Assembly: GCF_029232205.1 (NCBI RefSeq) | Contig: NZ_CP107255.1 | Location: 300,001-332,000, forward strand | Direction: 5' to 3' | Origin: Candidatus Saccharimonadota bacterium | GTDB lineage: Archaea; Nanohalarchaeota; Nanosalinia; Nanosalinales; Nanosalinaceae | DNA: 32,000 nucleotides | Part shown: positions 1-32,000 of the stretch, piece after piece | How positions within the stretch are numbered: position 1 is the first letter of the stretch | Layout of the letters: every line of letters starts with the position of its first letter | Position numbers and translations under genes: made by a program | The notes under the pieces: generated by a model | Seen by the model: only the letters and a program-made list of their open reading frames with translations | What the model was told of the DNA's origin: nothing | Database searches by the model: none

Positions 1-724
1 AGTCTTGTATGTGGTCTATTTCTATTGGGAGTGAGACTAGCCAGCTTCCGTCGTGTAGGCTGTATGGCATTCTGAACAGGTGGCGTTGGCCCCAGTCGTT
101 TTCGATATCGGAGACTCTGTAAGGTTTTTTCCCGTTATCGGTCTCCATCTTCTCCTCCAGGCCGTATTCTTTGATCAGCTCCATCATTTCTTCTCGGAGA
201 TTGTCTCGTATGTAGTCAATTATTCCTCTTGGAAGCCGAGGGTACATGTCTGAGATTTCTTGCTGGTCGATCTCCTGAGGGAAGGCCTCTCCTCTGACTC
301 CTATGTGGAATCCGCGGTTGCCGGAGAATTTTACGCTGATGTTCTCTATGCCGTGATCCTCTAGTTCACGGATTACAAGTTCGGCAGTATCTTTTGCGAG
401 ATCAAAGCTGTGATCGCAGTCGATATCTATTACTAGATCCCAGCCCTCACGTAGCTGATTCAAGTCTGAAACATTGTCGATCAGCAGAGGGTTGCGCCAC
501 TTCTCTACAGAGGAGTGGAATGCTACTGCGCCATCCTCTACCAGTGCCTGGAAGTCACCAGGGAAGTTAATAGCATCCGGTCTTTTACCGTAACCGTTTG
601 GGTAGGTGGGGGCGATCTCTCGGTATTCTGCGATTTCAAGAATTTTTTCCTGAAGGCCTTCTTTTTCGTAGTACTGGCGTATTTTCCAGTCCTGTGGCCT
701 CCGGTCGTCCCCCTCCTCTGACAT
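1..724 (-). CDS. priS: DNA primase small (catalytic) subunit PriS, N-terminal ~241 aa; the C-terminus lies beyond the window edge
   Basis: Absent from the ORF track because it runs off the window. My minus-strand translation from the ATG (complement of 722-724) reads MSEEGDDRRPQDWKIRQYYEKEG...GWDLVIDIDCDHSF...VKFSGNRGFHIGV...RHLFRMPYSLH. These are archaeo-eukaryotic primase motifs I (DxD), II (SGxRGFH) and III. The + ORF at 515-721 is its antisense shadow. Confidence 0.8.
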   Translation of the reverse strand, partial: MSEEGDDRRPQDWKIRQYYEKEGLQEKILEIAEYREIAPTYPNGYGKRPDAINFPGDFQALVEDGAVAFHSSVEKWRNPLLIDNVSDLNQLREGWDLVIDIDCDHSFDLAKDTAELVIRELEDHGIENISVKFSGNRGFHIGVRGEAFPQEIDQQEISDMYPRLPRGIIDYIRDNLREEMMELIKEYGLEEKMETDNGKKPYRVSDIENDWGQRHLFRMPYSLHDGSWLVSLPIEIDHIQD

Positions 725-809
725 GTAAATAGTTGTGGTAGGAAACTGTAAAAATCCCGGCCTCTGGTGAAGGTTTCGGATAAAAAAGTTTCTTACGTAT
801 AGAAGCTGT

Positions 810-1493
810 ATGCCGGAAGAAATATACAGAGACCCAGAGACTTATGTCGAGAAAAGGTATAGCTCGACTGGCGGAAGAAAGGTTTTGGAAAGGCAGAACA
901 GGAATTTTGAGGAGCTTCTTGAAGGCCTTGGTGCCGAGCCTGGTGATAGTGTTCTTGAGCTTGGTTCTGGGCCGGCTTTGCTTTCAGAGTATCTTGACGA
1001 GTATGATTCTGTAGGTGCGGATATTGAGCAGGAGCCTCTTCAGGTTGCTGTTGATAGTGGCCGTGTTGAGGATGCCGTTCGTGTTGATGCCCACAGACTT
1101 CCTTTCAGGGATGATGCGTTTGACTATGTGGTTGCGCCACGGCTTTTCCATCTCGTTGGCGATGAAGAAGATGTTGTGGATGAGATGAATCGTGTTGCGG
1201 AGGAAGGTTTTGTATTTGATGTTTTCAGCGAGTCAAGCGGTCGTAAAGTATACAATAACAGGATGTCGAAGCACAGCAGCTATATGCCTGCTGACAGCAC
1301 TCTTCACAGTGATGAGGAAGTTGAGAGTTGGCTTGAAGGCCTTGATTTTGAAGTTCAGAGCGACTTTCCGATTCCTTTCGGAGCCTACAGAGAGTCTGAG
1401 TCTGAACTGTTTACTGATGCTGTTGAGAAGATGCAGGATGCTTTTTCCGGCTCTCTCGACTCGGTAGTTTACTTCGGCGTAGAATCGGAGTAG
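810..1493 (+). CDS. Class I SAM-dependent methyltransferase
   Basis: 227-aa ORF. It has the glycine-rich SAM-binding motif I (VLELGSGPALL) followed by an acidic residue (GADIE). Substrate is unknown. Confidence 0.7.
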   Translation: MPEEIYRDPETYVEKRYSSTGGRKVLERQNRNFEELLEGLGAEPGDSVLELGSGPALLSEYLDEYDSVGADIEQEPLQVAVDSGRVEDAVRVDAHRLPFRDDAFDYVVAPRLFHLVGDEEDVVDEMNRVAEEGFVFDVFSESSGRKVYNNRMSKHSSYMPADSTLHSDEEVESWLEGLDFEVQSDFPIPFGAYRESESELFTDAVEKMQDAFSGSLDSVVYFGVESE

Positions 1494-1601
1494 TTTTTCT
1501 TTGTAGATAGAATAGAAATGAAAGAGAAATGTTTGAGGGTTTTAATCCTCTTCAATTCGTGACGAAGCATCAGGAGATGCTTCTTAGAGCATGCGAAGAA
1601 G

Positions 1602-2354
1602 CTAATCTTCTTCGATGCGTGGTGCCAGTACAAAGCTTAGGTTGGCTTCGTCTGGGATTGTGAATTCCAGTCTTACTGGGAATTCGTCGGCCATTTTGAC
1701 GGTTACTGTGTCGCTTAGTTTCTTTGCGCCGATCATTTTGGACAGGTAGTCGAGGCTGAACATGGATTTGGCCTCTTCTCCTGATAGCTCGATTACGCCG
1801 TCTGAGTCCTCTGTGATCTTGAAGTCTACGTCGGACTGGTCTCCCTCAGCTACTATCTCGATCCTATCCTTGGAGGCTGTTACTGTTACTGAGTCTGAGA
1901 CTACCATTGCGTCTTTGATTGCGCTCTCCAGTACGTCGGTCTCAAGTTCTCCTTCGAATGTGAATTCAAGTTGGTCTGTTGATGGAATGTCGTCCTCTGA
2001 AAGGTTGAGGATTGGCAGCGAGAAGTTTCTTGTGCTGCGGCCTTCCATATTGATGTAAAACTTGGATTCATCGTCTTTTACTTCGAGAGTGATTACGTCG
2101 TCGCTGTTTGCTCTTCGAAGAATTGAGTATAGATTTTCTAGATTTAGACCTACTTTTGATTCTTCATCAAGTTCGTAATTTTCGAATACGTCTTTTTCGA
2201 TGTGGAAATCTACTAGTCCTACCATTGCAGGGTCTGCTGCAACCAGGTGAATGCCGTCATCCTTTAACTGGAATAGGCCTTCACTGATTAGATCTGAAAT
2301 GGTTTTCATGGAGTCTTGTAGAAGTCCAACATCTTCGATTTCTGCTTTAAACAC
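1602..2354 (-). CDS. pcn: DNA polymerase sliding clamp PCNA
   Basis: 250 aa. The N-terminus MFKAEIEDVGLLQDSMKTISDLISEGLFQLKDDGIHLVAADPAMVGLVDF, the length and the two-domain layout are typical of archaeal PCNA. Confidence 0.9.
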   Translation of the reverse strand: MFKAEIEDVGLLQDSMKTISDLISEGLFQLKDDGIHLVAADPAMVGLVDFHIEKDVFENYELDEESKVGLNLENLYSILRRANSDDVITLEVKDDESKFYINMEGRSTRNFSLPILNLSEDDIPSTDQLEFTFEGELETDVLESAIKDAMVVSDSVTVTASKDRIEIVAEGDQSDVDFKITEDSDGVIELSGEEAKSMFSLDYLSKMIGAKKLSDTVTVKMADEFPVRLEFTIPDEANLSFVLAPRIEED

Positions 2355-2369
2355 CCTCCCTCACCTATG

Positions 2370-2699
2370 TTACTCAGAAGTGTTAACAACTTTTTTAACG
2401 CTGTCGTAGGTTTCTGGGTCGACGTCTTCGAAGCTCTGCACTATCTCTCCCTGTATTTCGAAGCTGTCAGGAGTTGGCAGTACTCGTCCAAGCACACGAA
2501 TTCTCTGCTGTTCTTCAAGATCTTCCATGACCTCATCTTCCAGGAATACCTCTACAGAGCCTGTGCTGTCGTCGATTGTAACTGAGTCGTTGTCAACTGA
2601 GATTACTGTTCCAACTACTCTTACTCTAATATCTTTTTGCGGGTCGATCTCCTCGATATCTTTAGGCCTTGCCGGCGCTCGTCTTTGGTTCTCGGGCAT
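2370..2699 (-). CDS. Small OB-fold nucleic-acid-binding protein (tRNA_anti-codon/RPA-like OB)
   Basis: 109 aa. The pattern IRVRVVGTVISVDNDSVTIDDSTGSVEV...RIRVLGRV is a typical OB-barrel strand pattern. The gene sits 15 nt upstream of PCNA on the same strand. Confidence 0.5.
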   Translation of the reverse strand: MPENQRRAPARPKDIEEIDPQKDIRVRVVGTVISVDNDSVTIDDSTGSVEVFLEDEVMEDLEEQQRIRVLGRVLPTPDSFEIQGEIVQSFEDVDPETYDSVKKVVNTSE

Positions 2700-2730
2700 A
2701 ATAAATACCGTGAGATAAAACTATTTCAAT

Positions 2731-2967
2731 ATGGGGAAGGTTCGAGAGAAAATACTGCATAACAGGCCTCTTGGAGAGTTTATGGTTCTGGGAGGTTTTC
2801 TGTCTTTTCTAGGCCTTTTCGTTTATCTTGGTTACAGGGTTTCTCAGGGTATTTACAGCTATAATCCTGGTGAGTATCAGCTTTTTGCTGTTTTGATGGC
2901 CTTGAGTTTTGCTGTTTTTATCGGTGGTGCTGAGATTTTGTTGATTGATTGGCGGGATCGGCACTAG
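2731..2967 (+). CDS. Small membrane protein (2 predicted TM helices)
   Basis: 78-aa ORF with two hydrophobic stretches (FMVLGGFLSFLGLFVYLGY and LFAVLMALSFAVFIGGAEILLI). Confidence 0.45.
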   Translation: MGKVREKILHNRPLGEFMVLGGFLSFLGLFVYLGYRVSQGIYSYNPGEYQLFAVLMALSFAVFIGGAEILLIDWRDRH

Positions 2968-2998
2968 GATTAAATACCAGCATTTTCAATTTCTTTGT

Positions 2999-3622
2999 AT
3001 GGACTTGTTTGGCAAGAAAGGAGAGGAAGCTGCTGCCGAGGCTCACGAGCTTGAGGAGCAGATTAATTCTCTTCAATCGCATGTAAATGCTATGGATAAT
3101 GCTTTGCAGGATTTTGAAACTCGTTTTAATTCTCTCCAGCAGAGTATGCCTGAAGGCCTAGAGGATGATATTGATCAGAATAAGCGTGATTTGAATGATC
3201 TTGAGCGTATTTTCCGAAGGTTGAGCCGGATTCAGTCCAAGCAGAATGAGAAGCTGCGACAGCTTAATGATAGTAAGAACAGTATTCAGGATGAGATCGC
3301 TGGTCTGAAGCAGCAGTTGAAGGACAGGAAGTCAGATGCTCAAAGTCTTGAGGAACGCATTTCCCGGCTTGAAAGCCAGATTCAGGATCAGGATCGCCAG
3401 GTTTTCGATAGAGTTGATGAGATCGAGTCCAAGGTCGGCGAGATTGAAGAACAGTTTATTCTTGACAGTAATCGTCAGGAGTGGGATCTTGATAGCAAGG
3501 TTGAAGAGTCCAAGTTCAAGAACAGGGCCTCAAAGATTGATAAAGAGTTGAGCAAGTTGAGAACTTCTGTTAACGCTATTGCTGATGAGGTTAACGCTGA
3601 AAAAGTAGAGATTGAGGAGTAA
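2999..3622 (+). CDS. Coiled-coil protein, ~207 aa (possible ESCRT-III/PspA-superfamily-like, unproven)
   Basis: The track ORF is 2945-3622. I prefer the ATG at 2999 (MDLFGKKGEEAAAE...), which avoids overlap with the upstream gene. Heptad-like, Q/E/L/R-rich sequence runs throughout. Confidence 0.55.
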   Translation: MDLFGKKGEEAAAEAHELEEQINSLQSHVNAMDNALQDFETRFNSLQQSMPEGLEDDIDQNKRDLNDLERIFRRLSRIQSKQNEKLRQLNDSKNSIQDEIAGLKQQLKDRKSDAQSLEERISRLESQIQDQDRQVFDRVDEIESKVGEIEEQFILDSNRQEWDLDSKVEESKFKNRASKIDKELSKLRTSVNAIADEVNAEKVEIEE

Positions 3623-3636
3623 AAAATAATTTTATT

Positions 3637-3972
3637 CTAGTCGTACTCCTTGTAGACGTTTCCACATTCACGACACTTGTAGAATCGTGTTGCAGGCTCG
3701 TCCGAAGCTCTTGTCTGTTCCATCCACCATTCTTGCTCTGTTTCTTCTCCACACTTCTTGCATTCTTTCTTGGTGGTTGGTCTTGTTGACTCTTCTCCGC
3801 CTTCCTCATTCACGTTCAGGCGATCCATAGGGTCGTCTTCTTTTTCTTCAGTTACTTTGTAGTCTCCGCCATCAACATCCTGGACATGTCCGCAGTCACG
3901 GCACTCCATGACTGTCTGACCGTCCTGTTTCTGGGAGACAAGCATTCCTCCGCATTCATCACAGAAGTCCAT
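3637..3972 (-). CDS. tfs: Transcription factor S (TFS; RNA polymerase subunit M-like cleavage factor)
   Basis: 111 aa. It has an N-terminal zinc ribbon (CDECGG...CRDCGH). The C-terminal zinc ribbon carries the catalytic acidic loop (CKKCG...QTRASDEPATRFYKCRECG). Confidence 0.9.
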   Translation of the reverse strand: MDFCDECGGMLVSQKQDGQTVMECRDCGHVQDVDGGDYKVTEEKEDDPMDRLNVNEEGGEESTRPTTKKECKKCGEETEQEWWMEQTRASDEPATRFYKCRECGNVYKEYD

Positions 3973-4011
3973 ATTGCCATAGATTACATGACCAATCTTT
4001 AAATTAACTAC

Positions 4012-4749
4012 CTAGCACGAAGGAGTATTGTCAATTACCAAGGGTCGATCCCCTGCATAACCAGCCAGATCCATAGCATACAGCTTGATAAGGCCTAGAC
4101 GCGGAATCTTGAAGAAAACTTTTCCATGGATCTGGTCGGGCCTCACCTCTTTCTCGAACTCCAGCTGTCCTGAGTTGGCGTCGCCCAGTGTTTCCAGGCT
4201 GCTGTTATTCTTCCTGACTACTCTGTGGACAATTGGAATATCTCCGACAGGAAGATCTGTTGCATAATCCACGCTAACGTCACGGCCTTCAATATTGTAT
4301 TCCTCTCCCTCTTGAAGTGGTTGCAGAGCACTGCCATTCAGGGATAAGAGTACTTTGTCGCGGTCTCTATCAGCTGAAGGCCTTACCTCCAGTAGTTCGA
4401 GGGTTCCGAGGGAGGTTTCTTGTTTCGAGAATTCTGTTGTATTTTTTTCGAGTACGATTTTTTCTCCATTAATTGTGAGTTCTGCTCTGTCAGGGACATC
4501 GTACACGATTATGTCGCCTTCTTCTACATTCTCGTATTCTGTGCCTTTTACAAATAGTATGTCGCCTACCTGTAGATCTGGACACATTGAGGGAGATACA
4601 ACTGTAACAACTGGCTTCTGAGTATCTGTTACTGCGCCTGCTGTCTGCAAGCTGCCAAATGCAAGTAGAATTGCCAGAAAAATAAAGTATATATCGTCTA
4701 GTTCTGTTAACTGATCTCTAAAATCGCTGTATCTCTCTTGGAAATCCAT
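4012..4749 (-). CDS. Signal peptidase I, archaeal/ER type (S26B)
   Basis: 245 aa with an N-terminal TM helix. The catalytic Ser motif is VVSPSMCPDL and a His box (IPIVHRVV) is present. Confidence 0.8.
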   Translation of the reverse strand: MDFQERYSDFRDQLTELDDIYFIFLAILLAFGSLQTAGAVTDTQKPVVTVVSPSMCPDLQVGDILFVKGTEYENVEEGDIIVYDVPDRAELTINGEKIVLEKNTTEFSKQETSLGTLELLEVRPSADRDRDKVLLSLNGSALQPLQEGEEYNIEGRDVSVDYATDLPVGDIPIVHRVVRKNNSSLETLGDANSGQLEFEKEVRPDQIHGKVFFKIPRLGLIKLYAMDLAGYAGDRPLVIDNTPSC

Positions 4750-4819
4750 GAAGAAAAACTTTGTAACTTCTCTTTTTTGAGTTAACCCTGTCTAAAATCA
4801 GGAAAGTAAAAGCAGGTTT

Positions 4820-5062
4820 TTAGGCCTGATCTTCGAGTTCTTCCATCCATTCCTGTGCAGTAGCAATTCCTTCTTTAAGAACTTCTTTTGGATTGTCTGC
4901 ATCGATTACAAGATTGGATTCTTCTCCTAGAGGGTGGCCTTTATCGTATCCGGCTTCTTCACCGTTCTCCCAGATTGCCTTTCTTACAAGATTTGCGACT
5001 GTATGGTTTTTCTGAAAGTTTACGATAAGTCGGTCTCCTTTTTCTACTGCTTCAAGCTCCAT
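4820..5062 (-). CDS. rpoL: DNA-directed RNA polymerase subunit L (Rpo11)
   Basis: 80 aa. The sequence ...FQKNHTVANLVRKAIWENGEEAGYDKGHPL is the typical RpoL/Rpb11 core. Its start overlaps the stop of the upstream methyltransferase (TAATG). Confidence 0.85.
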   Translation of the reverse strand: MELEAVEKGDRLIVNFQKNHTVANLVRKAIWENGEEAGYDKGHPLGEESNLVIDADNPKEVLKEGIATAQEWMEELEDQA

Positions 5063-5655
5063 TATTCTTTTCTCCTCGTGATTATCAAGTCTATTTCGGT
5101 TTCATGGCTTTCCTCTGTATGGAAGCCATAACTCGGCGGCAAAGAGATGCTGAACTCCTCTACCGCCAGCACTTCATGACTGGATTTTCCTGCAAAATCT
5201 TTTATACGTTCACGCATACCTCGTGGAGAAATTCCATAGACTGCGTTAGAGTGCTCTAAGGCCTTCTCCCAGAACTTCAGTCCAATGTCCGAGTGATGTG
5301 AGAAAGGAGGGTTCATCAGAACAGTGTCAACATCCAGTTCAAAATCCTCAATATCCTGCTGAATTACTTCAATATCAATATTCATTTTCTCCAGGTTTTC
5401 ATGCAGAAGTCTGACTGCATCGTCTTCTTTCTCTACTGCTGTGACCTCTGCTCCAAGAAGTGCTGCTCCTATACTGAGCATTCCGGTACCAGCTCCTAGA
5501 TCTGCTACTTTTTGGCCTTCAATATCGCCCTGCATGTACGCTGTATGCAGTAAATCAGCTGCAAGGGCCGGTGGTGTACGGTACTGTTCGAGGCTTATTC
5601 TTGGGTTCTCGAAGTCGCTGATCTTTGAAAGTTCTTTCTTGAGTTCTGTCTTCAC
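5062..5655 (-). CDS. METTL5-like N6-adenine RNA methyltransferase (NPPF family)
   Basis: 197 aa with LEQYRTPPALAADLL, SAM motif I VADLGAGTGMLSIGAALLGA, and the catalytic NPPF motif (VLMNPPFS). Confidence 0.75.
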   Translation of the reverse strand: MKTELKKELSKISDFENPRISLEQYRTPPALAADLLHTAYMQGDIEGQKVADLGAGTGMLSIGAALLGAEVTAVEKEDDAVRLLHENLEKMNIDIEVIQQDIEDFELDVDTVLMNPPFSHHSDIGLKFWEKALEHSNAVYGISPRGMRERIKDFAGKSSHEVLAVEEFSISLPPSYGFHTEESHETEIDLIITRRKE

Positions 5656-5700
5656 AGAGTAGGAATAGGGATTTAAGATTTAACATTCCTTCACACGGGT

Positions 5701-7335
5701 ATGCCAGACGAAAATTCCGAGCTACAGGATTTATCCCGCGAAGAACTTATTGAGAAAGTAAATGACCTACAGGAAGATCAGGTTGTCTTCTTCGAGCCAC
5801 AGAGAGAAATTATACTATCAAACCCTACAGATGAAACACTGAGAGAAATCTCCTCAATCTCACATATGGAGACCTCTTCTGGAGACCACTACAAGTTCCA
5901 GGTCCGAGAAATGGACATCTGGAACTCAGATCTCTCACTCGAAGAAATGAAAGAGAAATACACTCGTCTGGTAGGAAGCTACCCGCACTTCGTCGAATGG
6001 GTCGAAAGAACCTACGAGAAACAAGAAATGTTCAGAATAGAGCACGAAAGAATGGCTCACGTACTTGTCTCAGAAGATCCTGAAAGAATGGAATGGGCCC
6101 GCGGAATCGACAAGGTCCGCCAGAATCTATCAGTAGATCTTTCAGACACAAAATCCAGAATCCAGATGGGGGCAAAATCCCGTGCAGAGATCAAGAAGGC
6201 CCTGCTCAAGAAAGGATATCCGGTAGAAGACAACTCAAAATTCCGCGAATCCACAGAAAAGATAGGATGCGATCTAAAAGGAATAGATCTAAGAGATTAT
6301 CAGGAAGAATACGTAGAAAAGGCCTACGAGAAGAGGGCTGCAGTACTTGCTAATCCTGCAGGCTCAGGAAAAACTGTTACTTCTATCGGCCTCATGGCGA
6401 AAGTTGATGCACCGACACTGGTGCTTGTGCCGCAGAGGTCTCTTGTAAATCAGTGGAAACGTGAGATACTAGACAAGACAACTGTTACAGAGGATCAGAT
6501 AGGCCAGTATCACGGCGATCAGAAGAAGATGAAGGATGTAACTATTGCAACTTATCACATGGCTGGAGAGAAAACTTCTCTCTTCCAGAAGGAGTGGGGC
6601 CTGATTATTTTCGACGAGGTACACCACATTCCTTCCAAACTTTTCAGAAAGACTGCATCTCTACAGTCAACCAGAAGAATAGGCCTTTCTGCTTCTCCTG
6701 TTAGAGAGGATTCCAAGGAAAGGGAAATCTTCGCATTGATCGGTCAGGAGATTGGCGCCGACTGGGCCCGTTTCTTCTCGGAAGGCTACGTTGTCAAGCC
6801 GGATGTAGAAATTAATCTGGTTGAGTGGGAGTCCGATTTCTATAGGCACAAGTATGAGGAGGCCTCTGGAATCAAGAAAGCTATTGTGGCTTCGAAAAAC
6901 CCTGCTAAGATCCCTATGCTTGATGATTTGCTGGAAGAGCACACTGAGGAGAAGACCTTGATTTTCTGTGACTGGATTGATCAGGGAGAGGAGATCTCCG
7001 ACAAGTTTGACGTACCTTTCATTTCGGGTGAGACAGACTTTGATGAAAGAGAGGAGTACTTCGAGGACTTCAGAGAAGGCAAGATCAATACTATAATTGT
7101 CTCCAGGATCGGGGATGAAGGCCTTGATCTGCCGGATACAGAAGTTGGCATCATAATGTCTGGGCAGGGAGGATCCCGTAGACAGGCTACTCAGAGAGCT
7201 GGCAGAGTTATGAGGCCTTTCGGTGATGCTCAGGTCTACATGATCGCGACAAAAGGCTCGAATGAGGAGGACTTCGTTAAGAGACAGGTTGAACTTCTGA
7301 AAGAGAAAGGAGTGCCTGTTAAGATTAAGGAGTAA
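5701..7335 (+). CDS. xpb: XPB/Rad25-type SF2 DNA repair helicase
   Basis: 544 aa. Motifs: LRDYQEEYV (Q motif region), Walker A PAGSGKT, DEVHH box, SASP, and the C-terminal RecA domain motif QATQRAGRVMR. Confidence 0.85.
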   Translation: MPDENSELQDLSREELIEKVNDLQEDQVVFFEPQREIILSNPTDETLREISSISHMETSSGDHYKFQVREMDIWNSDLSLEEMKEKYTRLVGSYPHFVEWVERTYEKQEMFRIEHERMAHVLVSEDPERMEWARGIDKVRQNLSVDLSDTKSRIQMGAKSRAEIKKALLKKGYPVEDNSKFRESTEKIGCDLKGIDLRDYQEEYVEKAYEKRAAVLANPAGSGKTVTSIGLMAKVDAPTLVLVPQRSLVNQWKREILDKTTVTEDQIGQYHGDQKKMKDVTIATYHMAGEKTSLFQKEWGLIIFDEVHHIPSKLFRKTASLQSTRRIGLSASPVREDSKEREIFALIGQEIGADWARFFSEGYVVKPDVEINLVEWESDFYRHKYEEASGIKKAIVASKNPAKIPMLDDLLEEHTEEKTLIFCDWIDQGEEISDKFDVPFISGETDFDEREEYFEDFREGKINTIIVSRIGDEGLDLPDTEVGIIMSGQGGSRRQATQRAGRVMRPFGDAQVYMIATKGSNEEDFVKRQVELLKEKGVPVKIKE

Positions 7336-7338
7336 TCC

Positions 7339-24454: not shown

Positions 24455-24582
24455 CACTACCACCCCTATATAGAGGCCTTATAAACGTTTTGTAATCACG
24501 AGTGTTTACACAATCTTCTCTGTTCATGTAATCAAGGTTGATTGCGATATGTTTTAAATCTTCCCATCATCCTTGATTGCAT

Positions 24583-25206
24583 ATGGTCAGGGACTATGAG
24601 GAAGAAGTAATGACGTCTCTTCTGGCGTATAAAATTTTGCGTTCTATTAATAGGAAAGGCCAAGCATACCCTACAGAGATAGCAGAAGATCTTGATACTT
24701 CTTACCAATCTGTAAACAATTATATGAAAGGCCTAAGAAAGAGAAAAATAGTAGAAAAGAGCAAAGAGGAAGGGAAGAAAAGATACTATTCTATTTCTCC
24801 AGAAGGAATCTTTAACACTTGGAAGCAGTTATGGCTTGAAGATTTAGATAAGGAAACAGTTTCTAGCCTAAAGAGAGCAGTGCAAAGCGATAAGGCCCAA
24901 AAACATATCGAAGATATAGAAAATAACGTAGGTGTTCTGGTATCATCATATACTGCAGGCTACTTAGAGGTAAATGAGGAAGGAAATCTTCAGGACATGT
25001 TATATGACGACTTCTGGACGTCTCTACAACCGTATCCTACCAATTCAGAACAGTGGCTATCTACTTTTTGCCATCTAATGGATATACTTCGAAAGACAGA
25101 AAAAGTCGGAAAAGGACCTATGATAGCGGCTATTGAAAAAACAAGAGAATCTGAAGAGCAGATTGGGGACTTTAAATTTTTCTCAGATTTGGAGAAAGAG
25201 AATTAA
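24583..25206 (+). CDS. Winged-helix transcription regulator with a C-terminal extension, ~207 aa
   Basis: LLAYKILRSINRKGQAYPTEIAEDLDTSYQSVNNYMKGLRKRKIVEKSKEEGKKRYYSISPEG is an ArsR/MarR-like wHTH. I prefer the ATG at 24583 to the TTG at 24577. Confidence 0.6.
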   Translation: MVRDYEEEVMTSLLAYKILRSINRKGQAYPTEIAEDLDTSYQSVNNYMKGLRKRKIVEKSKEEGKKRYYSISPEGIFNTWKQLWLEDLDKETVSSLKRAVQSDKAQKHIEDIENNVGVLVSSYTAGYLEVNEEGNLQDMLYDDFWTSLQPYPTNSEQWLSTFCHLMDILRKTEKVGKGPMIAAIEKTRESEEQIGDFKFFSDLEKEN

Positions 25207-26714
25207 AGGAAGCCTTTCTCTTTCATACGTTTTCGAGTACTATCGCGGATACTCTCCTCTATCTGTTCTTCATTTAACCCAAACTCCTCTGTCAACGTCT
25301 CTATAACTTCGCTCTTTACTTCGTGTGTTGTCTTGTTCATTTCTGAAACTGTGTCAGCATTCTTTGCAGGATTTTCTATATTCTTCATGCTGTTTTGGCT
25401 AGCAATATCCTCCAAAGCCGCTTCCATTACTTCATCAGGGCTGTTGTGAGCCTTTAAACTGTTTTCAAGTTCTCCTTCACAGTTCTTGCAGTAACTCCAT
25501 AGAGGAGAGGCGTACTCTCCGCACTCTGGACAGTCGTAGGGTTTAAGGTTATCTCTACTGAATTTCTTTTCTGATTTATTTAGGTTTTCTCCATAATCCT
25601 CTCTCACTCCTGCTAGGAGGCTCTCCTGCATGAGCTCGATATAGTATTTCGGAGCATCGCTATTCTTGCTCCATCCGAAAAACCCTCTCAAGAAGTTCTC
25701 GTTTTTATCCTTCGATGCCCAATACAGCGCTCTTCCGTCTCTCCAGAACCAGTGTGGCTTTTTCGTTATCCTCTCTGGTATGTCTGACCTGTCTATACAT
25801 CTCTGCAAGGCCCTTCTCATGGCGTCATCATCCAGGGGTTTGTACTTCTTCACTGCTTCAGAATTCTTCCCTTGCCAGGTGCAGCTCTCACATTCATACC
25901 GTCTTTCACTATAGTTTCTGGATCTACTTTTCGCATTAAGCTGGTCCCCACAGTTGGGGCAGAAATTTCTTGGGTTCTGATGCCTGAAAACAGGATCTGA
26001 CATGTCAGGATTTGTTTCTTCGTACAGTTTCTTCATCAGAGGCATCCCTACACGGACAGGAACTGTCCTCTCTCCTGACTTACCTCTGAGAGTTACGTGC
26101 ATCTCCTGGTCCTTGAACTTGATCTGGTTCCAGCTAAGAGGCTCCGGGTACTTGTGCGTGTCAGAGGTCTTCGCTAGCTCACCTATTCTTGCACCCGTGG
26201 CCCAGCCAAACACAACCATTGCTTGATCGCGCAGACTGTTTGCTGCTTCGGAAACTTTTATTACGTGCTCAGGCGTTGGTCTGGTATCTGTATCGATATT
26301 GTGCGTGATATTGGTGTGTACTTCGAGATCTTCCAGGAGTTCCTCGCCGTCAATATCTTCAACATATCCGCGTCCTTCTTTCTTGATGAAACTATTGTAG
26401 AACACGCTAATAGTCTCCATCAGTTTCTCTTTGCTGTAGTCGCTATATTTCTCTCCATCGTTCTTCCTTACTTCATCTTGGTTTATCTTGCCTACTAAGG
26501 CCTCTAGGTCCTTATATTTGGCTTTGTCTAGTTTAAAATCTATATGTTCTGCTAGACTATTGAAGCAGGAAGCATTCCTTTGCAGGGTTTCGCCTCCTAC
26601 GTCTGTTGATTTTCTCTTGCGGAAGAAATCGTTTAGAACTTCTTTATTGTGCTCTGAGAGTTCGGGATTTTGCTGAAGTTTCTGGTTGGTCTGTTTTAGA
26701 GCTTGGAAGGGCAT
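25203..26714 (-). CDS. int: Tyrosine recombinase/integrase (intact; not split by integration) with two zinc-ribbon insertions
   Basis: 503 aa with an N-terminal SAM-like domain. Catalytic residues in order: Arg (GWATGARIGE), the Lys hairpin (LRGKSGERTVPV), His..Arg (KPHWFWRDGRA), and Trp...Tyr (GWSKNSDAPKYYIE). There are two CxxC...CxxC modules: CPNCG..CESC and CPECG..CKNC. Confidence 0.8.
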   Translation of the reverse strand: MPFQALKQTNQKLQQNPELSEHNKEVLNDFFRKRKSTDVGGETLQRNASCFNSLAEHIDFKLDKAKYKDLEALVGKINQDEVRKNDGEKYSDYSKEKLMETISVFYNSFIKKEGRGYVEDIDGEELLEDLEVHTNITHNIDTDTRPTPEHVIKVSEAANSLRDQAMVVFGWATGARIGELAKTSDTHKYPEPLSWNQIKFKDQEMHVTLRGKSGERTVPVRVGMPLMKKLYEETNPDMSDPVFRHQNPRNFCPNCGDQLNAKSRSRNYSERRYECESCTWQGKNSEAVKKYKPLDDDAMRRALQRCIDRSDIPERITKKPHWFWRDGRALYWASKDKNENFLRGFFGWSKNSDAPKYYIELMQESLLAGVREDYGENLNKSEKKFSRDNLKPYDCPECGEYASPLWSYCKNCEGELENSLKAHNSPDEVMEAALEDIASQNSMKNIENPAKNADTVSEMNKTTHEVKSEVIETLTEEFGLNEEQIEESIRDSTRKRMKEKGFL

Positions 26715-26806
26715 GGTTTTGCTTTACACCTCTATAAAGCCTAGAAGCGACTAAGCCCTTCAAAAGAGTATCTGTTAAGTCGATACTGAACATGGGAGCC
26801 AATGGG

Positions 26807-26817
26807 CGGCTTTCCCA
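26807..26817 (+). repeat. Putative attR core (CGGCTTTCCCA)
   Basis: Exact 11-bp copy of the tRNA-Met 3' end, 93 nt upstream of the integrase start codon. It is followed by the hairpin CTTCAC-gtat-GTGAAG. Confidence 0.5.
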
Positions 26818-26942
26818 TCCTTCACGTATGTGAAGGCTGTTCAAGAAACCATTTGGGTTTGAATGCTTTTGTTCCCAAGTTTTTCTTCATTCTCTAATAA
26901 GAAAGGAAAAGGAAATGTTTGTGGTTTTTTTCTGTCGTGTGA

Positions 26943-27110
26943 TTAGGCCTCTGCCTCTACTATGTGGGTATTGTTTACGCAGCTTTGGTGACAGTAGCCT
27001 TCGGTAGCTTCCAGGTAGTCTTCGTGACTGTGAACTCTATCTCCGCAGATAACGCATAGGCCTAACCTGTCGACTGTTGTATTCAGAATTGTTCCACCCC
27101 CCGTGGCCAT
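26943..27110 (-). CDS. Small Cys/His-rich protein, 55 aa
   Basis: Below the track cutoff. My translation is MATGGGTILNTTVDRLGLCVICGDRVHSHEDYLEATEGYCHQSCVNNTHIVEAEA, giving a CxxC...H.H...CHxxC pattern. Confidence 0.35.
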   Translation of the reverse strand: MATGGGTILNTTVDRLGLCVICGDRVHSHEDYLEATEGYCHQSCVNNTHIVEAEA

Positions 27111-27194
27111 ACGTTTACCGAGGAGGGTATTAAGTAAATCTGTAGAGGAGAACTTGTGTTCTCCTCCGATACTACTTTCTGGTCAAAAGGCCTT

Positions 27195-28997
27195 TTACTC
27201 GTGCGTGAAGTAGAAAATTCCTTCTTCCTCGCATCTTACGAATCCGAATCTCTCGAACTGGTATACCTCATTTGAATCATATTCGGATGGTTCGATCCGG
27301 CCTTCTTTGACTTCGCCGTCAGGCATGTGGACCTGAGCCTCGTCTGCGTTGGATGGAGCCCAGTGTACAATGTCTGCGTCTTTATCTAGGGCCTCGGTGT
27401 GGTCTCCTTCGCGGTACTCTGCGGTTTCTCCTTCTATTTCGATGTTGCAGAGGCCTTTCAGTCTGAGGAATCCGTCCTCAAGATCTTCTTCCTCTACAAG
27501 AACTGTGATTTTTTCTCCGTCTCTGTCTAGTTCGAAGTTTCTGGTGCCCAGATCCTGGTCTGGGTGGCGGGCCATGTGAGGTTCAACATCCTCTGGAACT
27601 CCTGAGATCTCAAGTTCTACAGGGTTTCTGACGAAGAATCTTCTTTCGGCTTCCTGATCCACTATCTTTCTGTTGTGGGATTCAAGTGTTTCTGTGCTGG
27701 CCTCGATATCTTTCTCTGAGACCCCCATTTCAATGTAGAAGTTCTGAAGGGCCTCTGGCTGGAATCCTCTTTTTCTGAGAGCTCTCAGTGTTGGAGCTCT
27801 TGGGTCGTCCCATCCGTCGAGTTCTCCTTCCTCCATCATTTCTGTAAGCGTGGATGTGCTTACAGGTGCGTCGAATCCTGAGATCTTGACATTGCCCCAG
27901 TACATGATGTGAGGGTAATCCCAGTCAAGGTAGTCGTAGATAAATTTCTGACGCTTTGTGGAGGCCCTGAGTTCTTTCCCACGTACAATATGTGTTGTAC
28001 CCATTACATGATCCTCGATAGCGCCCTGGAAATCAAGAAGAGGCCAGACACGGTACTTATCTCCGGTAACAGGGTGATCGGCCTCATCAATTATTCTGAA
28101 AGCTACAAAGTCTCTGATAGCAGGATTCTTATGCTGCATATCTGTCTTGATCTTCAAGGTAGCTTCTCCTTCTTCAAAGAAGGCCTTTTCTTCCTCTTGA
28201 TCCTCTTCTTCAGTTTCTTCATCTGCTTTATCTTCATTGTCTTCTTGAGGTTCCGATTCTTCGTCGGCCTCTTTTTCCTCTTCCTGTTCTTCTGTTTCTT
28301 CTTTGTTTTCTGCACGCATTTTCTTCCAGAGCTGCATGTTTTCCTCTGCGCTCTGATCTCTGTGTGGGCAGGCCTCTCCTTCTTCACGGTATTTGTGTCC
28401 TTCTTCCTGTGAGCACTGGCATACGTAGGCCTTGCCCATTTCGATAAGTTTTTCCGCGTATTCTATGTATGTATCAAAGTTTTTGGATGAGTAACGGACT
28501 TCGTCAGGCTTGTAGCCCAGCCATTCGTAGTCCTCTGCGTACATGTCGTATGCTTCTTTCAGAGGCCTTTTAGTGACTGGATCTGTGTCGTCGTACCTGA
28601 GAATTAGTTTGCCTTCGTATTTGTCCCGTAGCTCTCCGTTGATTGTCATTCCGCGGGCGTGGCCGATGTGTGGAGGGCCGTTGGGGTTTGGTGCGAATCT
28701 TACAACTATTTCTTCGTATTCTTCTGCGTTTTCAAGGTCTGGGATCGGGTCGTGTTCTTCCTCTTCTTTTTCCTCGAACTCGTAGGATTCAAGCTCTTCT
28801 TCCTGTTCTTCAAGGCTCATTTCGTTGATTTCTGCGCAGATTTCCTGTGTTTTCTGCGTTACTTCTCCCTTGTTTTCAAATTCTTCCTCTGCAAAAATCT
28901 TTCCAATTACTGCTCCTGGGTTGCATTCTCCGCCGTGATCAACAGCGTTCTTCAAAGCATATTTACGAGCTATCTCCTCGAGTTCCATACCTTTCAC
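27195..28997 (-). CDS. gltX: Glutamyl-tRNA synthetase (archaeal/eukaryal type) with hyper-acidic insertions
   Basis: 600 aa. It has the HIGH motif (PNPNGPPHIGHARG) and LRYDDTDP. The blocks FRIIDEADHPVTGDKYRVWPLLDFQGAIEDHVMGTTHIVRGKE are class I GluRS core sequences. Confidence 0.9.
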   Translation of the reverse strand: MKGMELEEIARKYALKNAVDHGGECNPGAVIGKIFAEEEFENKGEVTQKTQEICAEINEMSLEEQEEELESYEFEEKEEEEHDPIPDLENAEEYEEIVVRFAPNPNGPPHIGHARGMTINGELRDKYEGKLILRYDDTDPVTKRPLKEAYDMYAEDYEWLGYKPDEVRYSSKNFDTYIEYAEKLIEMGKAYVCQCSQEEGHKYREEGEACPHRDQSAEENMQLWKKMRAENKEETEEQEEEKEADEESEPQEDNEDKADEETEEEDQEEEKAFFEEGEATLKIKTDMQHKNPAIRDFVAFRIIDEADHPVTGDKYRVWPLLDFQGAIEDHVMGTTHIVRGKELRASTKRQKFIYDYLDWDYPHIMYWGNVKISGFDAPVSTSTLTEMMEEGELDGWDDPRAPTLRALRKRGFQPEALQNFYIEMGVSEKDIEASTETLESHNRKIVDQEAERRFFVRNPVELEISGVPEDVEPHMARHPDQDLGTRNFELDRDGEKITVLVEEEDLEDGFLRLKGLCNIEIEGETAEYREGDHTEALDKDADIVHWAPSNADEAQVHMPDGEVKEGRIEPSEYDSNEVYQFERFGFVRCEEEGIFYFTHE

Positions 28998-29054
28998 TGC
29001 GTAGAAAATTCCTATAAATTCAATCCCTATGGAAAGATAGTTTTAGTGAAGGCC

Positions 29055-29567
29055 TTACTCTTCATCGGAGATAAGAGTCCATTTCTTCTCCGCGGTCGAG
29101 TTATCTACAACCCAGAGATCTCCGTTCTCAAGTCTCAACCGGGTCTTCCTCAGGCCTACATCTTCCAGAACACCTTCTGTACCCTCGATAATCACGCGGT
29201 CGCCGGAGTTAAAGTCCGAGTCCTGTGCCAGGTATGCTCCAGCAACGGTATCAGCGATAACATCCTTCAACGCGAACGCTACACCAAGAGCTACAAAACC
29301 TGAGGCAGTACCCATTGAAGCCGCAATACCTGAGAAACCGAGCACGCTGAGAGTCATGAGAATGGCCCAGAACCACATGAAGAAACGGCCTGAATCCACA
29401 ATAAGCTCAACTACAACAGGCTCCGAGTACCTCCGCGAGGCCGCAGATCTCAGAATATCCGATCCTGCTCTTATACCAATAACAGCCGCCAGCAGAAGAA
29501 GGCCTGCCTTGATTATTTTTATCCCAATCTCCGATACAGCAGCCTGAACCACAACAGGATCAATCAT
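29055..29567 (-). CDS. Short MscS-family mechanosensitive channel homologue, 170 aa
   Basis: The pore-lining helix pattern GFVALGVAFALKDVIADTVAGAYL is followed by the beta-domain GDRVIIEGTEGVLEDVGLRKTRLRLENGDLWVVDNS. The usual C-terminal alpha/beta domain is absent. Confidence 0.7.
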   Translation of the reverse strand: MIDPVVVQAAVSEIGIKIIKAGLLLLAAVIGIRAGSDILRSAASRRYSEPVVVELIVDSGRFFMWFWAILMTLSVLGFSGIAASMGTASGFVALGVAFALKDVIADTVAGAYLAQDSDFNSGDRVIIEGTEGVLEDVGLRKTRLRLENGDLWVVDNSTAEKKWTLISDEE

Positions 29568-29618
29568 ACTGAAAATTTACTTTTGCCTTCTTTTTACTCT
29601 TTGCAGCTTCCCAGAAAA

Positions 29619-31034
29619 TTATTTCAGGCCTAGTTTCTTCTTGAATTCTTTGGCATTTTTTAGATGATTCTCGACTGTTTCATCGTTCATTCTGTCGAGT
29701 GTTGATGTCATGAAGCTCATTCTGTGAATATCTGAGATTTTTTCTCTGTGTTTGTTGATGAAGTTCCAGTAGAGGCCGTCCCAGTGGTCTTCCCAGTCTC
29801 CACCTTCGTAATGAGACATCTTGTTGATGTAGTTTGATGAGGAGATGTAGGGCTTGGTCATCATGTTTTCGTAGGCGTATTGGCTCATACCGTAGATGTT
29901 CGGCACCATCACCCAGTCATACGAGTCGATAAACATCTCCATAAACCAGTCATAGACTTCATCAGGATCGATCTCGAGAAGTAGCATCACGTTGCCGAGA
30001 ACCATCAACCGCTCGATGTGGTGAGCATATGCATCATCCAATGCGTGACGAATAGAATCATCAACGGGTGGAAGGCCTGTACTTGCGCTGTAAAACTCTT
30101 CTGGCATCGAGTTATCCGCGTTCCAGAAGTTGGCTTCCCTCATCCCTGGCTCCAGCTCGTACATCGCCCGTATGAATTCTCGCCACCCGATGATCTGTCT
30201 CAGGAAACCTTCAAGAGAATTCATGGGGTAATCTTTCTCTTCATGGGCCTGTAGAGTTTTCTCTACTATTTCTTCCGGCGTCAAGAGGCCTAAATTGATT
30301 GAAGAGGATAGCAGAGAGTGGAAGCCGAACTTGAGGTCTGGATCAATCGCGTCCTGGTAGTCACCGAACTTCTCTAATCTATTCTCAAGGAAGTCTTCAA
30401 GATTTTTCAGGGCCTGTTCGCGTGTTGCCGGCCAGAAAAAATCCTCGATTTTCCCAGGATTTTCCGGAAAGTTTTCCTCCACGTATTCTTTCGCATCTTC
30501 GACGTGCTGAGAAGAAAACTGTGGTATCTCCGGTTTTTCAATATCTTCCGGCATTTTCTTCCTGTTTTCGGGATCGAAACTCCATTTGCCTCCTTCAGGC
30601 TTTCCTTCATCATCTACCAGTATGTTGAACTTTTTCCGCATCTGTTTGTAGTAGTTCAACTGGAAGTACTTGTGTGAAGAGAAGTATTTCTGGTTGAAAT
30701 CCATCGAGGCCATGAAACCTGGGTTCTCCTCGAAAACTAGCTCGACATCGAACTTTTCCGCTAGGCCTTCCAGCTGGTTCCTAGCTTTGTGGTCTACAGG
30801 ATTGTATATCCTGATTTTATCTTCTTTCTGGAAGATCTCGGCGATATCCTGGTCGTATTCGAAGTATTCGACGTTAAATTTCTCTGAGTAGGCCTTCATT
30901 GAGGCCCGGTGTAGTATTAGCTTTTTTCTGTGGAAGTTGAAGTCTGTGAAGTATCTTGAGTGCTCTACGAGGTATTTTATGTCTTCATCTACTGGTTCTG
31001 GGAAGAGCTGGTTTGGGAGGATGATGGAGGCCAT
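29619..31034 (-). CDS. FeS-BCP/(6-4)-photolyase-related protein (COG3046-type cryptochrome/photolyase family)
   Basis: 471 aa. N-terminus IILPNQLF...HRKKLILHRASMKAY. C-terminal blocks are LEGFLRQIIGWREFIR, AYAHHIERLMVLGN, PNIYGMSQYA, TKPYISSSNYINKMS and LYWNFI. The protein contains no cysteine at all. Confidence 0.8.
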   Translation of the reverse strand: MASIILPNQLFPEPVDEDIKYLVEHSRYFTDFNFHRKKLILHRASMKAYSEKFNVEYFEYDQDIAEIFQKEDKIRIYNPVDHKARNQLEGLAEKFDVELVFEENPGFMASMDFNQKYFSSHKYFQLNYYKQMRKKFNILVDDEGKPEGGKWSFDPENRKKMPEDIEKPEIPQFSSQHVEDAKEYVEENFPENPGKIEDFFWPATREQALKNLEDFLENRLEKFGDYQDAIDPDLKFGFHSLLSSSINLGLLTPEEIVEKTLQAHEEKDYPMNSLEGFLRQIIGWREFIRAMYELEPGMREANFWNADNSMPEEFYSASTGLPPVDDSIRHALDDAYAHHIERLMVLGNVMLLLEIDPDEVYDWFMEMFIDSYDWVMVPNIYGMSQYAYENMMTKPYISSSNYINKMSHYEGGDWEDHWDGLYWNFINKHREKISDIHRMSFMTSTLDRMNDETVENHLKNAKEFKKKLGLK

Positions 31035-31290
31035 ACTGTAAGGTCTAATGCTGAGTTATTTGTCCTTTTTTGTTTCCTGTCTGGCCTTATCCCCAAACTG
31101 TTTTTCTTCTGATCGGCCGTCGTTAGTTTTTCTTTTTGGAGGTCTTATTCCCTGATTTTCTTGATTCTAATGCTGTTTCAGGCCTTGATTTCTGCAGTAA
31201 AGCTCTGTATCTATAGGGAAAAAGGTTTATAATTGATTTTGCAGAATTTCTGGCCTTGTTTTGATAAGTGAAAGGGTTACAGTTTGGTTT

Positions 31291-31506
31291 ATGGATTCAA
31301 CTCAAGCTAAGTTGCTTTTTCCAGTAGGTGCAGTACTGGAGTTTCTGGGAGCGCTGACATTAATCACCAACGATGGAGCCTTAATCTCCAAAGTTGATCT
31401 TGGATTTAGCATTCCAGCTATCCTGCCTGTAGAAGTTCAGGGGATAGGGCTCCTGGCTGCTGGAGGTCTACTAACGGCATTTGCCATAAAGGAGATAAGT
31501 AGCTAG
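31291..31506 (+). CDS. Small membrane protein, 71 aa
   Basis: I prefer the ATG at 31291 (MDSTQAKLLFPVGAVLEFLGALTLI...). Two hydrophobic helices are present. Confidence 0.4.
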   Translation: MDSTQAKLLFPVGAVLEFLGALTLITNDGALISKVDLGFSIPAILPVEVQGIGLLAAGGLLTAFAIKEISS

Positions 31507-31595
31507 TTAAAACCCTAGACTCCTTACAAAAATTCTCTTCTTTTATCTTTACGCTATGAGAAAATAGGCCTAAAATTTGAGCTTTATATCTAATA

Positions 31596-31871
31596 ATGAG
31601 CGATCCAATTTATTCCAGCAAATTAAAAAGCATAGGCCCTTATTTTAGATGTATGAATACAAAACTGAAAGAGGCCATTCTCAGAGGCCTGTCTGCATCA
31701 GTTTTTTCGGCAGTAGCAACATATCTGGGCCTGAGAGCATGGATAACTCTAAGTATCAGTGTAGGGCCTGTGACAAAGCTTTACTCGCTGGTTGATGCGG
31801 CTACAGTTCTTGCAGCAGTGCTTGCCTTTTTCACTACGGCATTGGCATCGTATACTTCAATGGAGGAATGA
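31596..31871 (+). CDS. Small membrane protein, 91 aa
   Basis: Two or three hydrophobic segments, including LSASVFSAVATYLGL and AATVLAAVLAFFTTALA. Confidence 0.45.
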   Translation: MSDPIYSSKLKSIGPYFRCMNTKLKEAILRGLSASVFSAVATYLGLRAWITLSISVGPVTKLYSLVDAATVLAAVLAFFTTALASYTSMEE

Positions 31872-32000
31872 TTTTTATCGGGTTTAGAGAGATTTTAGAG
31901 AGACGTAAAATAGAACTTGCCGGGCTTCTATCCCTTCTAGTAGTTACAGTGTTGAATCAAATAGCCCGAACTCCGTTAATTTACATATTTACGGTAATTG
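31868..32000 (+). CDS. Membrane protein, 5' fragment continuing beyond the window
   Basis: Its ATG overlaps the upstream stop (ATGA). Sequence starts MIFIGFREILERRKIELAGLLSLLVVTVLNQIARTPLIYIFTVI... and stays open to the window end. Confidence 0.35.
   Translation, partial: MIFIGFREILERRKIELAGLLSLLVVTVLNQIARTPLIYIFTVI

Follow-up and report, generated by a model that had tools for sequence, protein, structure and literature searches.

The 32,000-bp stretch of DNA analysed here (the window) very probably belongs to Candidatus (Ca.) Nanohalovita haloferacivicina BNXNv, a cultivated ectosymbiont of Haloferax, and is densely occupied by the palindromic hexamer AGGCCT, which is the subject of this report. 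The genes of the window are archaeal and include those for PCNA, the XPB helicase, the small subunit of primase and RNA polymerase subunits, as well as an intron-containing tRNA gene. The pyrophosphatases closest to that of the window are from Nanohaloarchaea. Two core flanks enclose an integrated mobile element (Table 1), and the left flank shows synteny to M3_22 and to further loci from nanohaloarchaea. All gene calls are our own selection of open reading frames (ORFs).

Table 1. Features of the window and start positions of its AGGCCT sites
Feature	Position	Strand	Evidence or content
Left core flank	1–13800		Genes for primase small subunit, PCNA, XPB helicase, ABC-2 transporter and pyrophosphatase, and two tRNA genes (Pfam)
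tRNA(CAU) gene, integration target	13659–13800	+	Rfam tRNA, 60.5 bits; 71-nt insertion after the anticodon loop
Left attachment (att) repeat, CGGCTTTCCCA	13790–13800	+	Exact 11-bp direct repeat of 26807–26817; 3′ end of tRNA(CAU)
Integrated mobile element, about 13 kb	13801–26817		att repeats, tyrosine recombinase, P4-family primase; absent from M3_22
P4-family primase/helicase of the element	21983–23509	-	TIGR01613, E = 3e-36; Pfam DUF5906
Tyrosine recombinase (integrase) of the element	25206–26714	-	Weak Phage_integrase and XerA matches; adjoins the right att repeat
Right att repeat, CGGCTTTCCCA	26807–26817	+	Exact copy of the last 11 bases of tRNA(CAU)
Right core flank	26818–32000		Glutamyl-tRNA synthetase, mechanosensitive-channel-like gene, photolyase-related gene (Pfam)
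AGGCCT starts, left flank (n = 40)	283, 654, 923, 1337, 2275, 2664, 2764, 2811, 3154, 4091, 4378, 4822, 5259, 6320, 6681, 6860, 7119, 7213, 7495, 7994, 8315, 9035, 9057, 9127, 9752, 9858, 10410, 10422, 10920, 10965, 11088, 11389, 11486, 11593, 11790, 12129, 12558, 12926, 13135, 13728		
AGGCCT starts, element (n = 17)	16661, 16762, 17065, 17793, 17960, 19017, 19048, 19671, 21618, 22144, 22774, 22952, 23213, 23251, 24474, 24729, 26498		
AGGCCT starts, right flank (n = 19)	26945, 27058, 27188, 27451, 28181, 28370, 28427, 28563, 29050, 29152, 29500, 29626, 30073, 30286, 30763, 30890, 31180, 31566, 31685		

The integrated element, already proposed in the initial annotation of this sequence, is borne out by its att repeats, integrase and primase, and by its absence from M3_22 (locus L002; CP046106). 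This closest complete relative is syntenic with the window and lacks window positions 13807–26892. In the alignment across the empty site, position 11970 of L002 corresponds to window position 26893, and position 11982 to window position 13806. For BNXNv, the probable source genome of this 13-kb element, the genome paper found no genomic islands (PMC10266531). The 71-nt intron of the target tRNA(CAU) gene itself holds one AGGCCT (13728) and one AGGCCC.

An exact count yielded 76 AGGCCT sites in 32,000 bp (GC 43.7%), against 5.7 expected from base composition, giving an observed-to-expected ratio (O/E) of 13.2. The initial annotation had put these values at about 76 sites and about 13-fold, and had called for a Markov-corrected comparison. 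After dinucleotide and trinucleotide correction the ratio stayed well above 1: the order-1 model expects 8.4 sites (9.0-fold excess) and the order-2 model 18.0 (4.2-fold). The order-3 model expects 44.5 sites (1.7-fold), and the sole model to "explain" the count is that of order 4, with 72.6 expected sites, a trivial match because the pentamers AGGCC and GGCCT already hold the signal. Among the 4096 hexamers, AGGCCT ranked first under both order 1 (z = 23.3) and order 2 (z = 13.6), and the runner-up palindromic hexamer in the window, AGATCT, reached only 2.8-fold. Of the 182 GGCC tetramers in the window, 113 (62%) have a 5′ A and 117 (64%) a 3′ T, close to the two-thirds estimated earlier.

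Since AGGCCT is its own reverse complement, it constitutes a strandless site. The sequence logo of its flanks is flat, except for a mild preference for A at −1 and T at +1, which rules out a hidden longer repeat or a mobile miniature element. The spacing of the sites in the window is close to random, with a coefficient of variation (CV) of 0.95 and no regular short-range period. At 12558–12580, between two convergent genes, lies a small inverted repeat of the form AGGCC-N5-GGCCT (an AGGCCT followed, five bases on, by GGCCT), which is capable of forming a hairpin.

Raw O/E alone is no evidence for a special word. In the GC-rich haloarchaeal loci (L030–L084), CTCGAG, GTCGAC and CGATCG reach 6–10 times what mononucleotide composition predicts, probably owing to codon and dipeptide effects, and the AGGCCT excess might be supposed to be a compositional, codon or dipeptide artefact of the same sort. 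However, the sites occupy all three coding phases, 12 of them as AGG CCT, 17 as xAG GCC Txx and 33 as xxA GGC CTx, while 14 lie outside the gene calls. When synonymous codons were shuffled with the proteins and the codon usage kept, 10.8 coding sites were expected, whereas 62 were observed (z = 17); the individual phases lay 5.1–7.2-fold above this shuffle. Shuffling the codon order within genes gave 7.2 expected sites. Wholly intergenic sites numbered 12 in 4.5 kb, as compared to 0.62 expected, and orthologues in sister lineages encode the same peptides without the sites. The two shuffles and the site-free orthologous peptides refute the artefact, whose probability we regard as negligible.

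These results agree with the initial annotation, which had reported AGGCCT in all three phases and in intergenic DNA, and had argued that it is not a codon-pair or dipeptide effect. Its intergenic examples (12558, 13135 and 27188) all fall outside the gene calls, and the phases that it gave for the sites at 9035 and 9057 are correct. The site at 923 is present as well, its phase following, by our own arithmetic, from the gene call at 810–1490. AGGCCT is a free-standing 6-bp word, neither a repeat element nor a codon artefact.

To place the window among its relatives, we used related syntenic loci gathered by one genome scan and one metagenome scan. AGGCCT is enriched, with an O/E of 12–30, in M3_22 (L002), L005, L008, L010, L019, L020 and L029, intermediate in L026 (LFCJ01000004.1; 7.4) and weak in L018, a contig of the Nha-R1 type (2.5). 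Among the 21 other nanohaloarchaeal loci, the ratio was below 2 in every locus longer than 5 kb, and two contigs shorter than 5 kb reached up to 3.5 from one or two sites. The GC-rich haloarchaeal loci stood at about 1 or less, except for the short contig L070 (3.1). When pooled, eight enriched loci contain 363 sites in 125 kb and the non-enriched loci 22 in 187 kb, corresponding to O/E values of 15.4 and 0.79, which differ 19.5-fold. The shift of AGGCCT is unmatched by any independent hexamer: the runners-up all overlap it, and the largest shift between the two pools among non-overlapping hexamers is about 3-fold. The non-enriched nanohaloarchaeal loci are mildly depleted in AGGCCT, with 21 sites against 29–39 expected.

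In bootstrapped single-gene neighbour-joining trees of XPB and glutamyl-tRNA synthetase (GluRS), the enriched loci form at least two well-supported clades. The first contains the window, L002 and L005, joined by L019 (91%, XPB), and the second contains L008, L010 and L026 (100%). A single origin of the trait found little support, as the monophyly of all enriched loci received bootstrap values of 18% (XPB) and 0% (GluRS). Judged from these sequences, the enrichment appears evolutionarily labile, being on or off between related lineages and on in at least two nanohaloarchaeal clades, although single-gene trees cannot count its gains and losses. In L026, the deviants at shared positions all differ in an inner letter, and AGGCTT and AGGTCT are raised 2.5-fold and 2.4-fold, while the outer-letter variants are not. 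L026 may represent a lineage in which the trait is being acquired or lost.

The comparison of the two pools also defined what is recognized. GGCC with both A/T flanks has an enriched/non-enriched ratio of 19.5, as compared to 3.1 for GGCC with one good half-site and 1.15 for GGCC with none. This half-site hierarchy shows that the symmetric hexamer as a whole, and not its GGCC core, is the unit. A GGCC-core specificity of the HaeIII type was ruled out, given that GGCC without the A/T flanks is unchanged (1.15). Among the one-step variants, those in the inner four letters have enriched/non-enriched ratios of 0.68–0.96, whereas those in the outer letters are raised 2.2–4.5-fold. At positions where at least two enriched lineages carry the site, 13 of the 26 deviants in enriched lineages differ in an outer letter, versus 7 of 64 in non-enriched lineages (Fisher p = 1.4e-4). 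By our codon-position count, this bias holds although the inner letters more often stand at synonymous positions. Elhai described the same outer-letter bias among the deviants of HIP1, the highly iterated palindrome of cyanobacteria (PMC4390886).

These data bear directly on the cause that the initial annotation had named first, very-short-patch-type repair. In this scheme, T:G mismatches arising from methylcytosine within the site would be corrected to C:G, draining AGGCTT/AAGCCT or AGGTCT/AGACCT. The orthologous positions in outgroups are indeed often AAGCCT, AGGCTT or AGGTCT, and the transition neighbours are somewhat raised in L026. The depletion of these neighbours, for which the annotation had proposed a check, was nevertheless not found: the enriched/non-enriched ratios are 0.96 for AGGCTT/AAGCCT and 0.93 for AGGTCT/AGACCT. 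Furthermore, the essential outer A and T cannot arise by T:G repair, and the Gly codons GGA and GGG also become GGC, which needs transversions. We estimate that a joint occupancy of 0.6–0.7 over two or three synonymous positions exceeds what the repair of single mismatches could achieve. In E. coli, the Dcm/Vsr effect on CCWGG is small and drains specific T-containing neighbours. AGGCCT resembles that system as a palindromic site of the methyltransferase type that a repair bias might raise, and differs from it in the 13–30-fold size of the effect, the undrained neighbours and the need for outer letters other than C or G. M3_22 is moreover listed with no Vsr and no 5-methylcytosine (m5C) methyltransferase gene (PMC10609329), and we consider very-short-patch repair highly improbable as the cause.

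A pure context-dependent mutation bias, such as a polymerase or damage signature acting with no hexamer-reading protein, would affect all resident DNA, including mobile elements. It would, however, need to work at every one of the six positions in favour of a single palindromic hexamer, through both transitions and transversions, while non-overlapping hexamers shift at most about 3-fold between the pools. The half-site hierarchy points instead to recognition by a protein, and a mutational origin of this kind seems to us very unlikely.

To quantify how fully the available positions are used, permissive positions were defined as the dipeptide or tripeptide contexts R-P, [EKQ]-A-[CFLSWY] and x-G-L, with x being any residue that a codon with final A can encode. 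In the core genes of the window, occupancy by phase is 0.55–0.67. The six strongly enriched lineages individually show 0.56–0.74, the enriched L010 shows 0.44 in a small sample (11/25), and L026 shows 0.24. Pooled occupancy is 0.60 in enriched lineages (279/462) and 0.046 in non-enriched ones (27/591; individually 0.00–0.11). Between the enriched and the non-enriched pool, this corresponds to a log odds ratio of about 3.5, which we infer to represent the scaled strength of a force that maintains the sites. Occupancy is nearly independent of the distance to the next site (0.49–0.70; rho = 0.11). This indifference argues against a need for a certain density, for example one strand-discrimination signal per kb, and for a force acting on every candidate position. 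Neither regular spacing nor a density threshold was seen in the CV of 0.95 or in the occupancy–distance test.

The force mostly spares the proteins. At window sites aligned with non-enriched orthologues, the peptide is identical in 85 of 139 cases, and the non-enriched lineages use other synonymous codons there, such as GGT, GGA or GGG for Gly and CGT for Arg. On the other hand, 7 of 26 sites encode a peptide shared by no non-enriched orthologue. In GluRS, which is less constrained, permissive peptides number 16.0 per 1000 residues in enriched lineages versus 10.7 in non-enriched ones (p = 0.004), while no such excess was found in pyrophosphatase, XPB or the ABC ATPase. Taken together, the largely synonymous making of sites and the peptide data indicate that the force acts mainly at synonymous and non-coding positions, occasionally altering amino acids.

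The sites are also conserved above background. In M3_22, 26 of the 42 aligned window sites (62%) are kept, as compared to 26% for all hexamers, a background that corresponds to a nucleotide identity of 78% (p = 1e-6). Third-codon-position identity between the window and M3_22 is 75.7% inside the motif and 53.8% outside. Across the related loci, window sites are kept at 65 of 121 aligned positions in strongly enriched loci versus 12 of 157 in non-enriched loci. With so few permissive positions, most of them occupied, some of the shared sites may have arisen by convergence and not by common descent.

Within the window, the density of sites differs between the core and the element. The left flank (1–13800) has 40 sites, or 2.9 per kb (15.9-fold excess), and the right flank (26819–32000) has 19, or 3.67 per kb (19.8-fold). 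The element (13801–26818) has 17 sites, or 1.31 per kb, still 7.7-fold over expectation and significantly sparser than the combined flanks at about 3.1 per kb (binomial p = 0.001). The initial annotation had rightly described the element as sparser, with about 17 sites at about 1.3 per kb against about 3 per kb in the flanks, and 13801–16660 as free of AGGCCT. There is indeed no site between 13728 and 16661, which leaves the first 2.9 kb of the element empty. The primase gene region (21983–23509) holds five sites, a core-like density. Occupancy of permissive positions is likewise lower in the element (13/36, 0.36) than in core genes (49/79, 0.62; Fisher p = 0.015). The force thus reaches mobile elements, at roughly half the host level in the window element. 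The lower density would be explained by a shorter exposure of the element to the force, or by the exposure of only part of its mosaic.

Relatives of the element were found through homologues of its primase, on small integrase-bearing contigs, while none were found in a viral contig collection. AGGCCT is enriched in L085 (32 sites, 11.4-fold) and about 14-fold in L091 and L092, reaches 3.2-fold in L093 and 1.0-fold in L086, and is absent from L088 and L090, where about 7 sites are expected under order-0 to order-2 models. Presumably, resident mobile DNA mirrors the on or off state of its host. The site-free elements suggest that some hosts in these communities restrict AGGCCT with enzymes of the StuI type.

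AGGCCT is identical to the StuI site (AGG^CCT), a 6-bp palindrome of the size and symmetry typical of Type II enzymes. Restriction pressure, however, normally leads to avoidance of a site, whereas AGGCCT is enriched 13–30-fold in the host DNA, 7.7-fold in the resident element and 11–14-fold in related elements, and its avoidance appears only in other lineages and elements (L088 and L090, no sites versus about 7). [quoted passage not shown]

Some contigs of this group, which are either relatives of the element or contigs sharing its Mod gene (L086, L093 and L095), carry RM genes of their own. A Type III Mod/Res pair lies beside an integrase in L093 (4434–8959) and L095 (9028–13553), and a 1160-aa MmeI-like Type IIG enzyme lies beside an integrase in L086 (15049–18531). 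With such RM cargo beside integrases, the element family therefore appears to shuttle RM systems among nanohaloarchaea.

Among known systems, AGGCCT most invites comparison with HIP1 (GCGATCGC) and the alternate cyanobacterial palindromes. HIP1 occurs in all coding phases, is conserved, shows outer-letter deviants and has been linked to an orphan methyltransferase (PMC4390886; PMC5861425). The two have in common a short GC-rich palindromic form, an excess of about 15-fold or more (here 13.2-fold in the window and 15.4-fold pooled), occurrence in all phases and in intergenic DNA, on/off presence among lineages, conservation above background and deviants in the outer letters. They differ in that HIP1 is an octamer of cyanobacteria and AGGCCT a hexamer of a DPANN archaeon, which makes AGGCCT a HIP-like analogue, not HIP1 proper. 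In addition, a methyltransferase is known for the inner CGATCG of HIP1, whereas the inner GGCC of AGGCCT is not enriched alone. The density of AGGCCT is about 3 per kb, as compared to about 1 per kb quoted for HIP1. Site periodicity of 10–90 kb is counted among the features of HIP1-type palindromes. At short range, viewed within 32 kb and loci of about 20 kb, the spacing of AGGCCT is near random. In summary, AGGCCT matches the HIP1-type palindromes in five tested features, and fails on exact sequence and host group. The proposals made for HIP1, all unsettled, are methylation-linked repair, chromosome structure and DNA uptake (PMC4390886, PMC5861425).

In our preferred account, to which we give roughly an even chance, a subset of Nanohaloarchaeota carries AGGCCT as a HIP1-like, highly iterated palindrome, kept by a per-site force on DNA through a putative hexamer-specific protein. 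A directional force would act site by site on any DNA that replicates in these cells. Its mediator would be a protein that reads the whole symmetric hexamer, one for which both AGG half-sites matter and a bare GGCC does not. The force itself is, in our view, likelier to be a repair or recombination bias, that is, molecular drive, than classical per-site selection, because each of about 3 sites per kb would carry a tiny share of fitness in a symbiont of small population size, and because the filling of positions is indifferent to local density. Such a bias is probably connected with the recognition of AGGCCT or with its methylation. A methylation-guided scheme, as Elhai proposed for HIP1, would affect each of the six letters and whatever DNA resides in the cells.

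A role in chromosome organization could also account for conserved sites. Here AGGCCT would be bound by an abundant nucleoid or architectural protein and kept by purifying selection. The conservation above background agrees with this view, the symmetric half-site logic suits a dimeric binder, and a role in chromosome structure was the one that Xu et al. preferred for HIP1 (PMC5861425). Nevertheless, the spacing is near random (CV 0.95), and the near-saturating, neighbour-independent occupancy is unexpected if a given density suffices. Selection on about 3 individual sites per kb would be hard in a small-population symbiont, and sister lineages with the same core genes do without the trait. An architectural role is, in our judgement, distinctly unlikely.

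AGGCCT might alternatively be a recognition signal for DNA uptake or exchange that accumulates by uptake-biased recombination. The high and fairly even density in the core, as compared to the lower density in the mobile element (about 3.1 versus 1.31 per kb, p = 0.001), fits this idea, as do the lineage-specific, dialect-like distribution of the trait and its accumulation site by site without a density threshold. For HIP1 itself, a methylation-dependent gain in transformation efficiency has been reported and a role as an uptake sequence proposed (bioRxiv 10.1101/2024.09.10.611283; 10.64898/2026.06.24.733823). On the other hand, a 6-bp palindrome discriminates poorly, and GC-rich DNA of the host type still has 0.1–0.4 sites per kb. 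The 11–14-fold enrichment of small integrase-borne elements is not predicted by an uptake drive on chromosomal DNA, unless the elements also spread by uptake. We found no literature on DNA uptake in nanohaloarchaea, and no uptake sequence is known from Archaea. The DNA uptake sequences (DUS) of Neisseriaceae and the uptake signal sequences (USS) of Pasteurellaceae resemble AGGCCT in being dense in the core and sparser in mobile DNA, mostly genic at tolerant positions, divided into lineage dialects and explicable by drive. Uptake-biased recombination is the route proposed for the spread of DUS in Neisseria and of USS in Haemophilus. However, they are non-palindromic words of 9–12 bp with known receptor or competence machinery, whereas AGGCCT is a 6-bp palindrome without extended context. 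AGGCCT is not a DUS/USS-type word, and a function as an uptake signal seems unlikely.

A more specific proposal, which we offer tentatively and consider doubtful on balance, is that AGGCCT represents the first archaeal self-DNA tag. It would be spread across entire genomes and the mobile elements resident in them by molecular drive, either through methylation-guided repair or conversion or through uptake-biased recombination, and would be on in some clades and off in their sisters. Our literature search turned up neither an earlier description of AGGCCT over-representation nor one of iterated palindromes in archaea (subscription journals lay outside the search).

Several points weigh against a force exerted through a hexamer-specific protein. 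The evidence, drawn from the 32-kb window and related loci of about 20 kb, mainly concerns a single chromosomal neighbourhood, and divergence data alone do not distinguish selection from biased conversion. No AGGCCT-reading protein was found in the window or the related loci. Pfam and NCBIfam scans of all ORFs of the window, together with a motif scan of all nanohaloarchaeal loci, detected no DNA methyltransferase, Vsr-like or restriction genes in the window or in the related loci of about 20 kb. The Type III Mod of BNXNv (P0215) was rejected as the determinant, given that it lies in DNA of 37.7% GC with one AGGCCT in 2 kb, and has an 83%-identical homologue on a non-enriched contig of Ca. Nanosalina sp. 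Finally, the only published nanohaloarchaeal methylome, that of Ca. Nanohalococcus occultus, contains GDGCHC only (PMC11001535).

The other results of this search are as follows. The initial annotation had suggested looking for an AGGCCT- or GGCC-specific methyltransferase and a Vsr, and neither is present in the window or the related loci. The only methyltransferase with an NPPF motif (5065–5655) is HemK/MTS-like and occurs in enriched and non-enriched lineages alike, and no neighbourhood gene among the related loci tracks the trait. A survey based on REBASE lists for M3_22 one orphan Type II methyltransferase, predicted to form N4-methylcytosine (m4C), and no restriction endonuclease, Vsr or m5C enzyme (PMC10609329); this orphan has no assigned specificity. 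In the BNXNv paper, the only DNA methyltransferase described is the Type III Mod/Res pair, and none of the 120 best matches of the Mod lies on a contig as long as the M3_22 chromosome (915,886 bp). The 2-kb contig that carries the BNXNv Mod gene (L094) has 37.7% GC, as compared to 45% for the genome, and one AGGCCT. Its DNA looks recently acquired.

Two further features of the left flank deserve mention. At 8753–11971, four consecutive paralogous genes for ABC-2 membrane proteins follow one ABC ATPase gene (7761–8747). The matches of these paralogues in related loci fall into two identity levels, of about 41–57% and 70–83%, a pattern that an older duplication of a module of two genes would explain. 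A 131-aa ORF (7339–7731) without a family match immediately follows the XPB helicase gene, and homologues of it were found solely in L002 and L005, the two closest loci. In archaea, the slot after XPB is usually taken by the larger gene of the Bax1 nuclease.

The problem of HIP1 has been open for about thirty years, and AGGCCT provides an independent system with a different word, carried by genomes of about 1 Mb in another domain of life. For DPANN metagenomes, the hexamer is relevant to binning and codon-usage analysis, since codon choice gives way to it at about 60% of permissive positions. Through the hexamer, mobile elements can be connected with a host class, and it serves as a residence-time marker for foreign DNA, flagging an integrated element in a genome reported without islands. 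The on/off trait between sister lineages amounts to a natural comparative experiment, and one carrier, BNXNv, is cultivated with Haloferax. If AGGCCT is truly a self-DNA tag, a comparison of gene content between the on and off lineages could identify the machinery involved and might bear on HIP1 as well.

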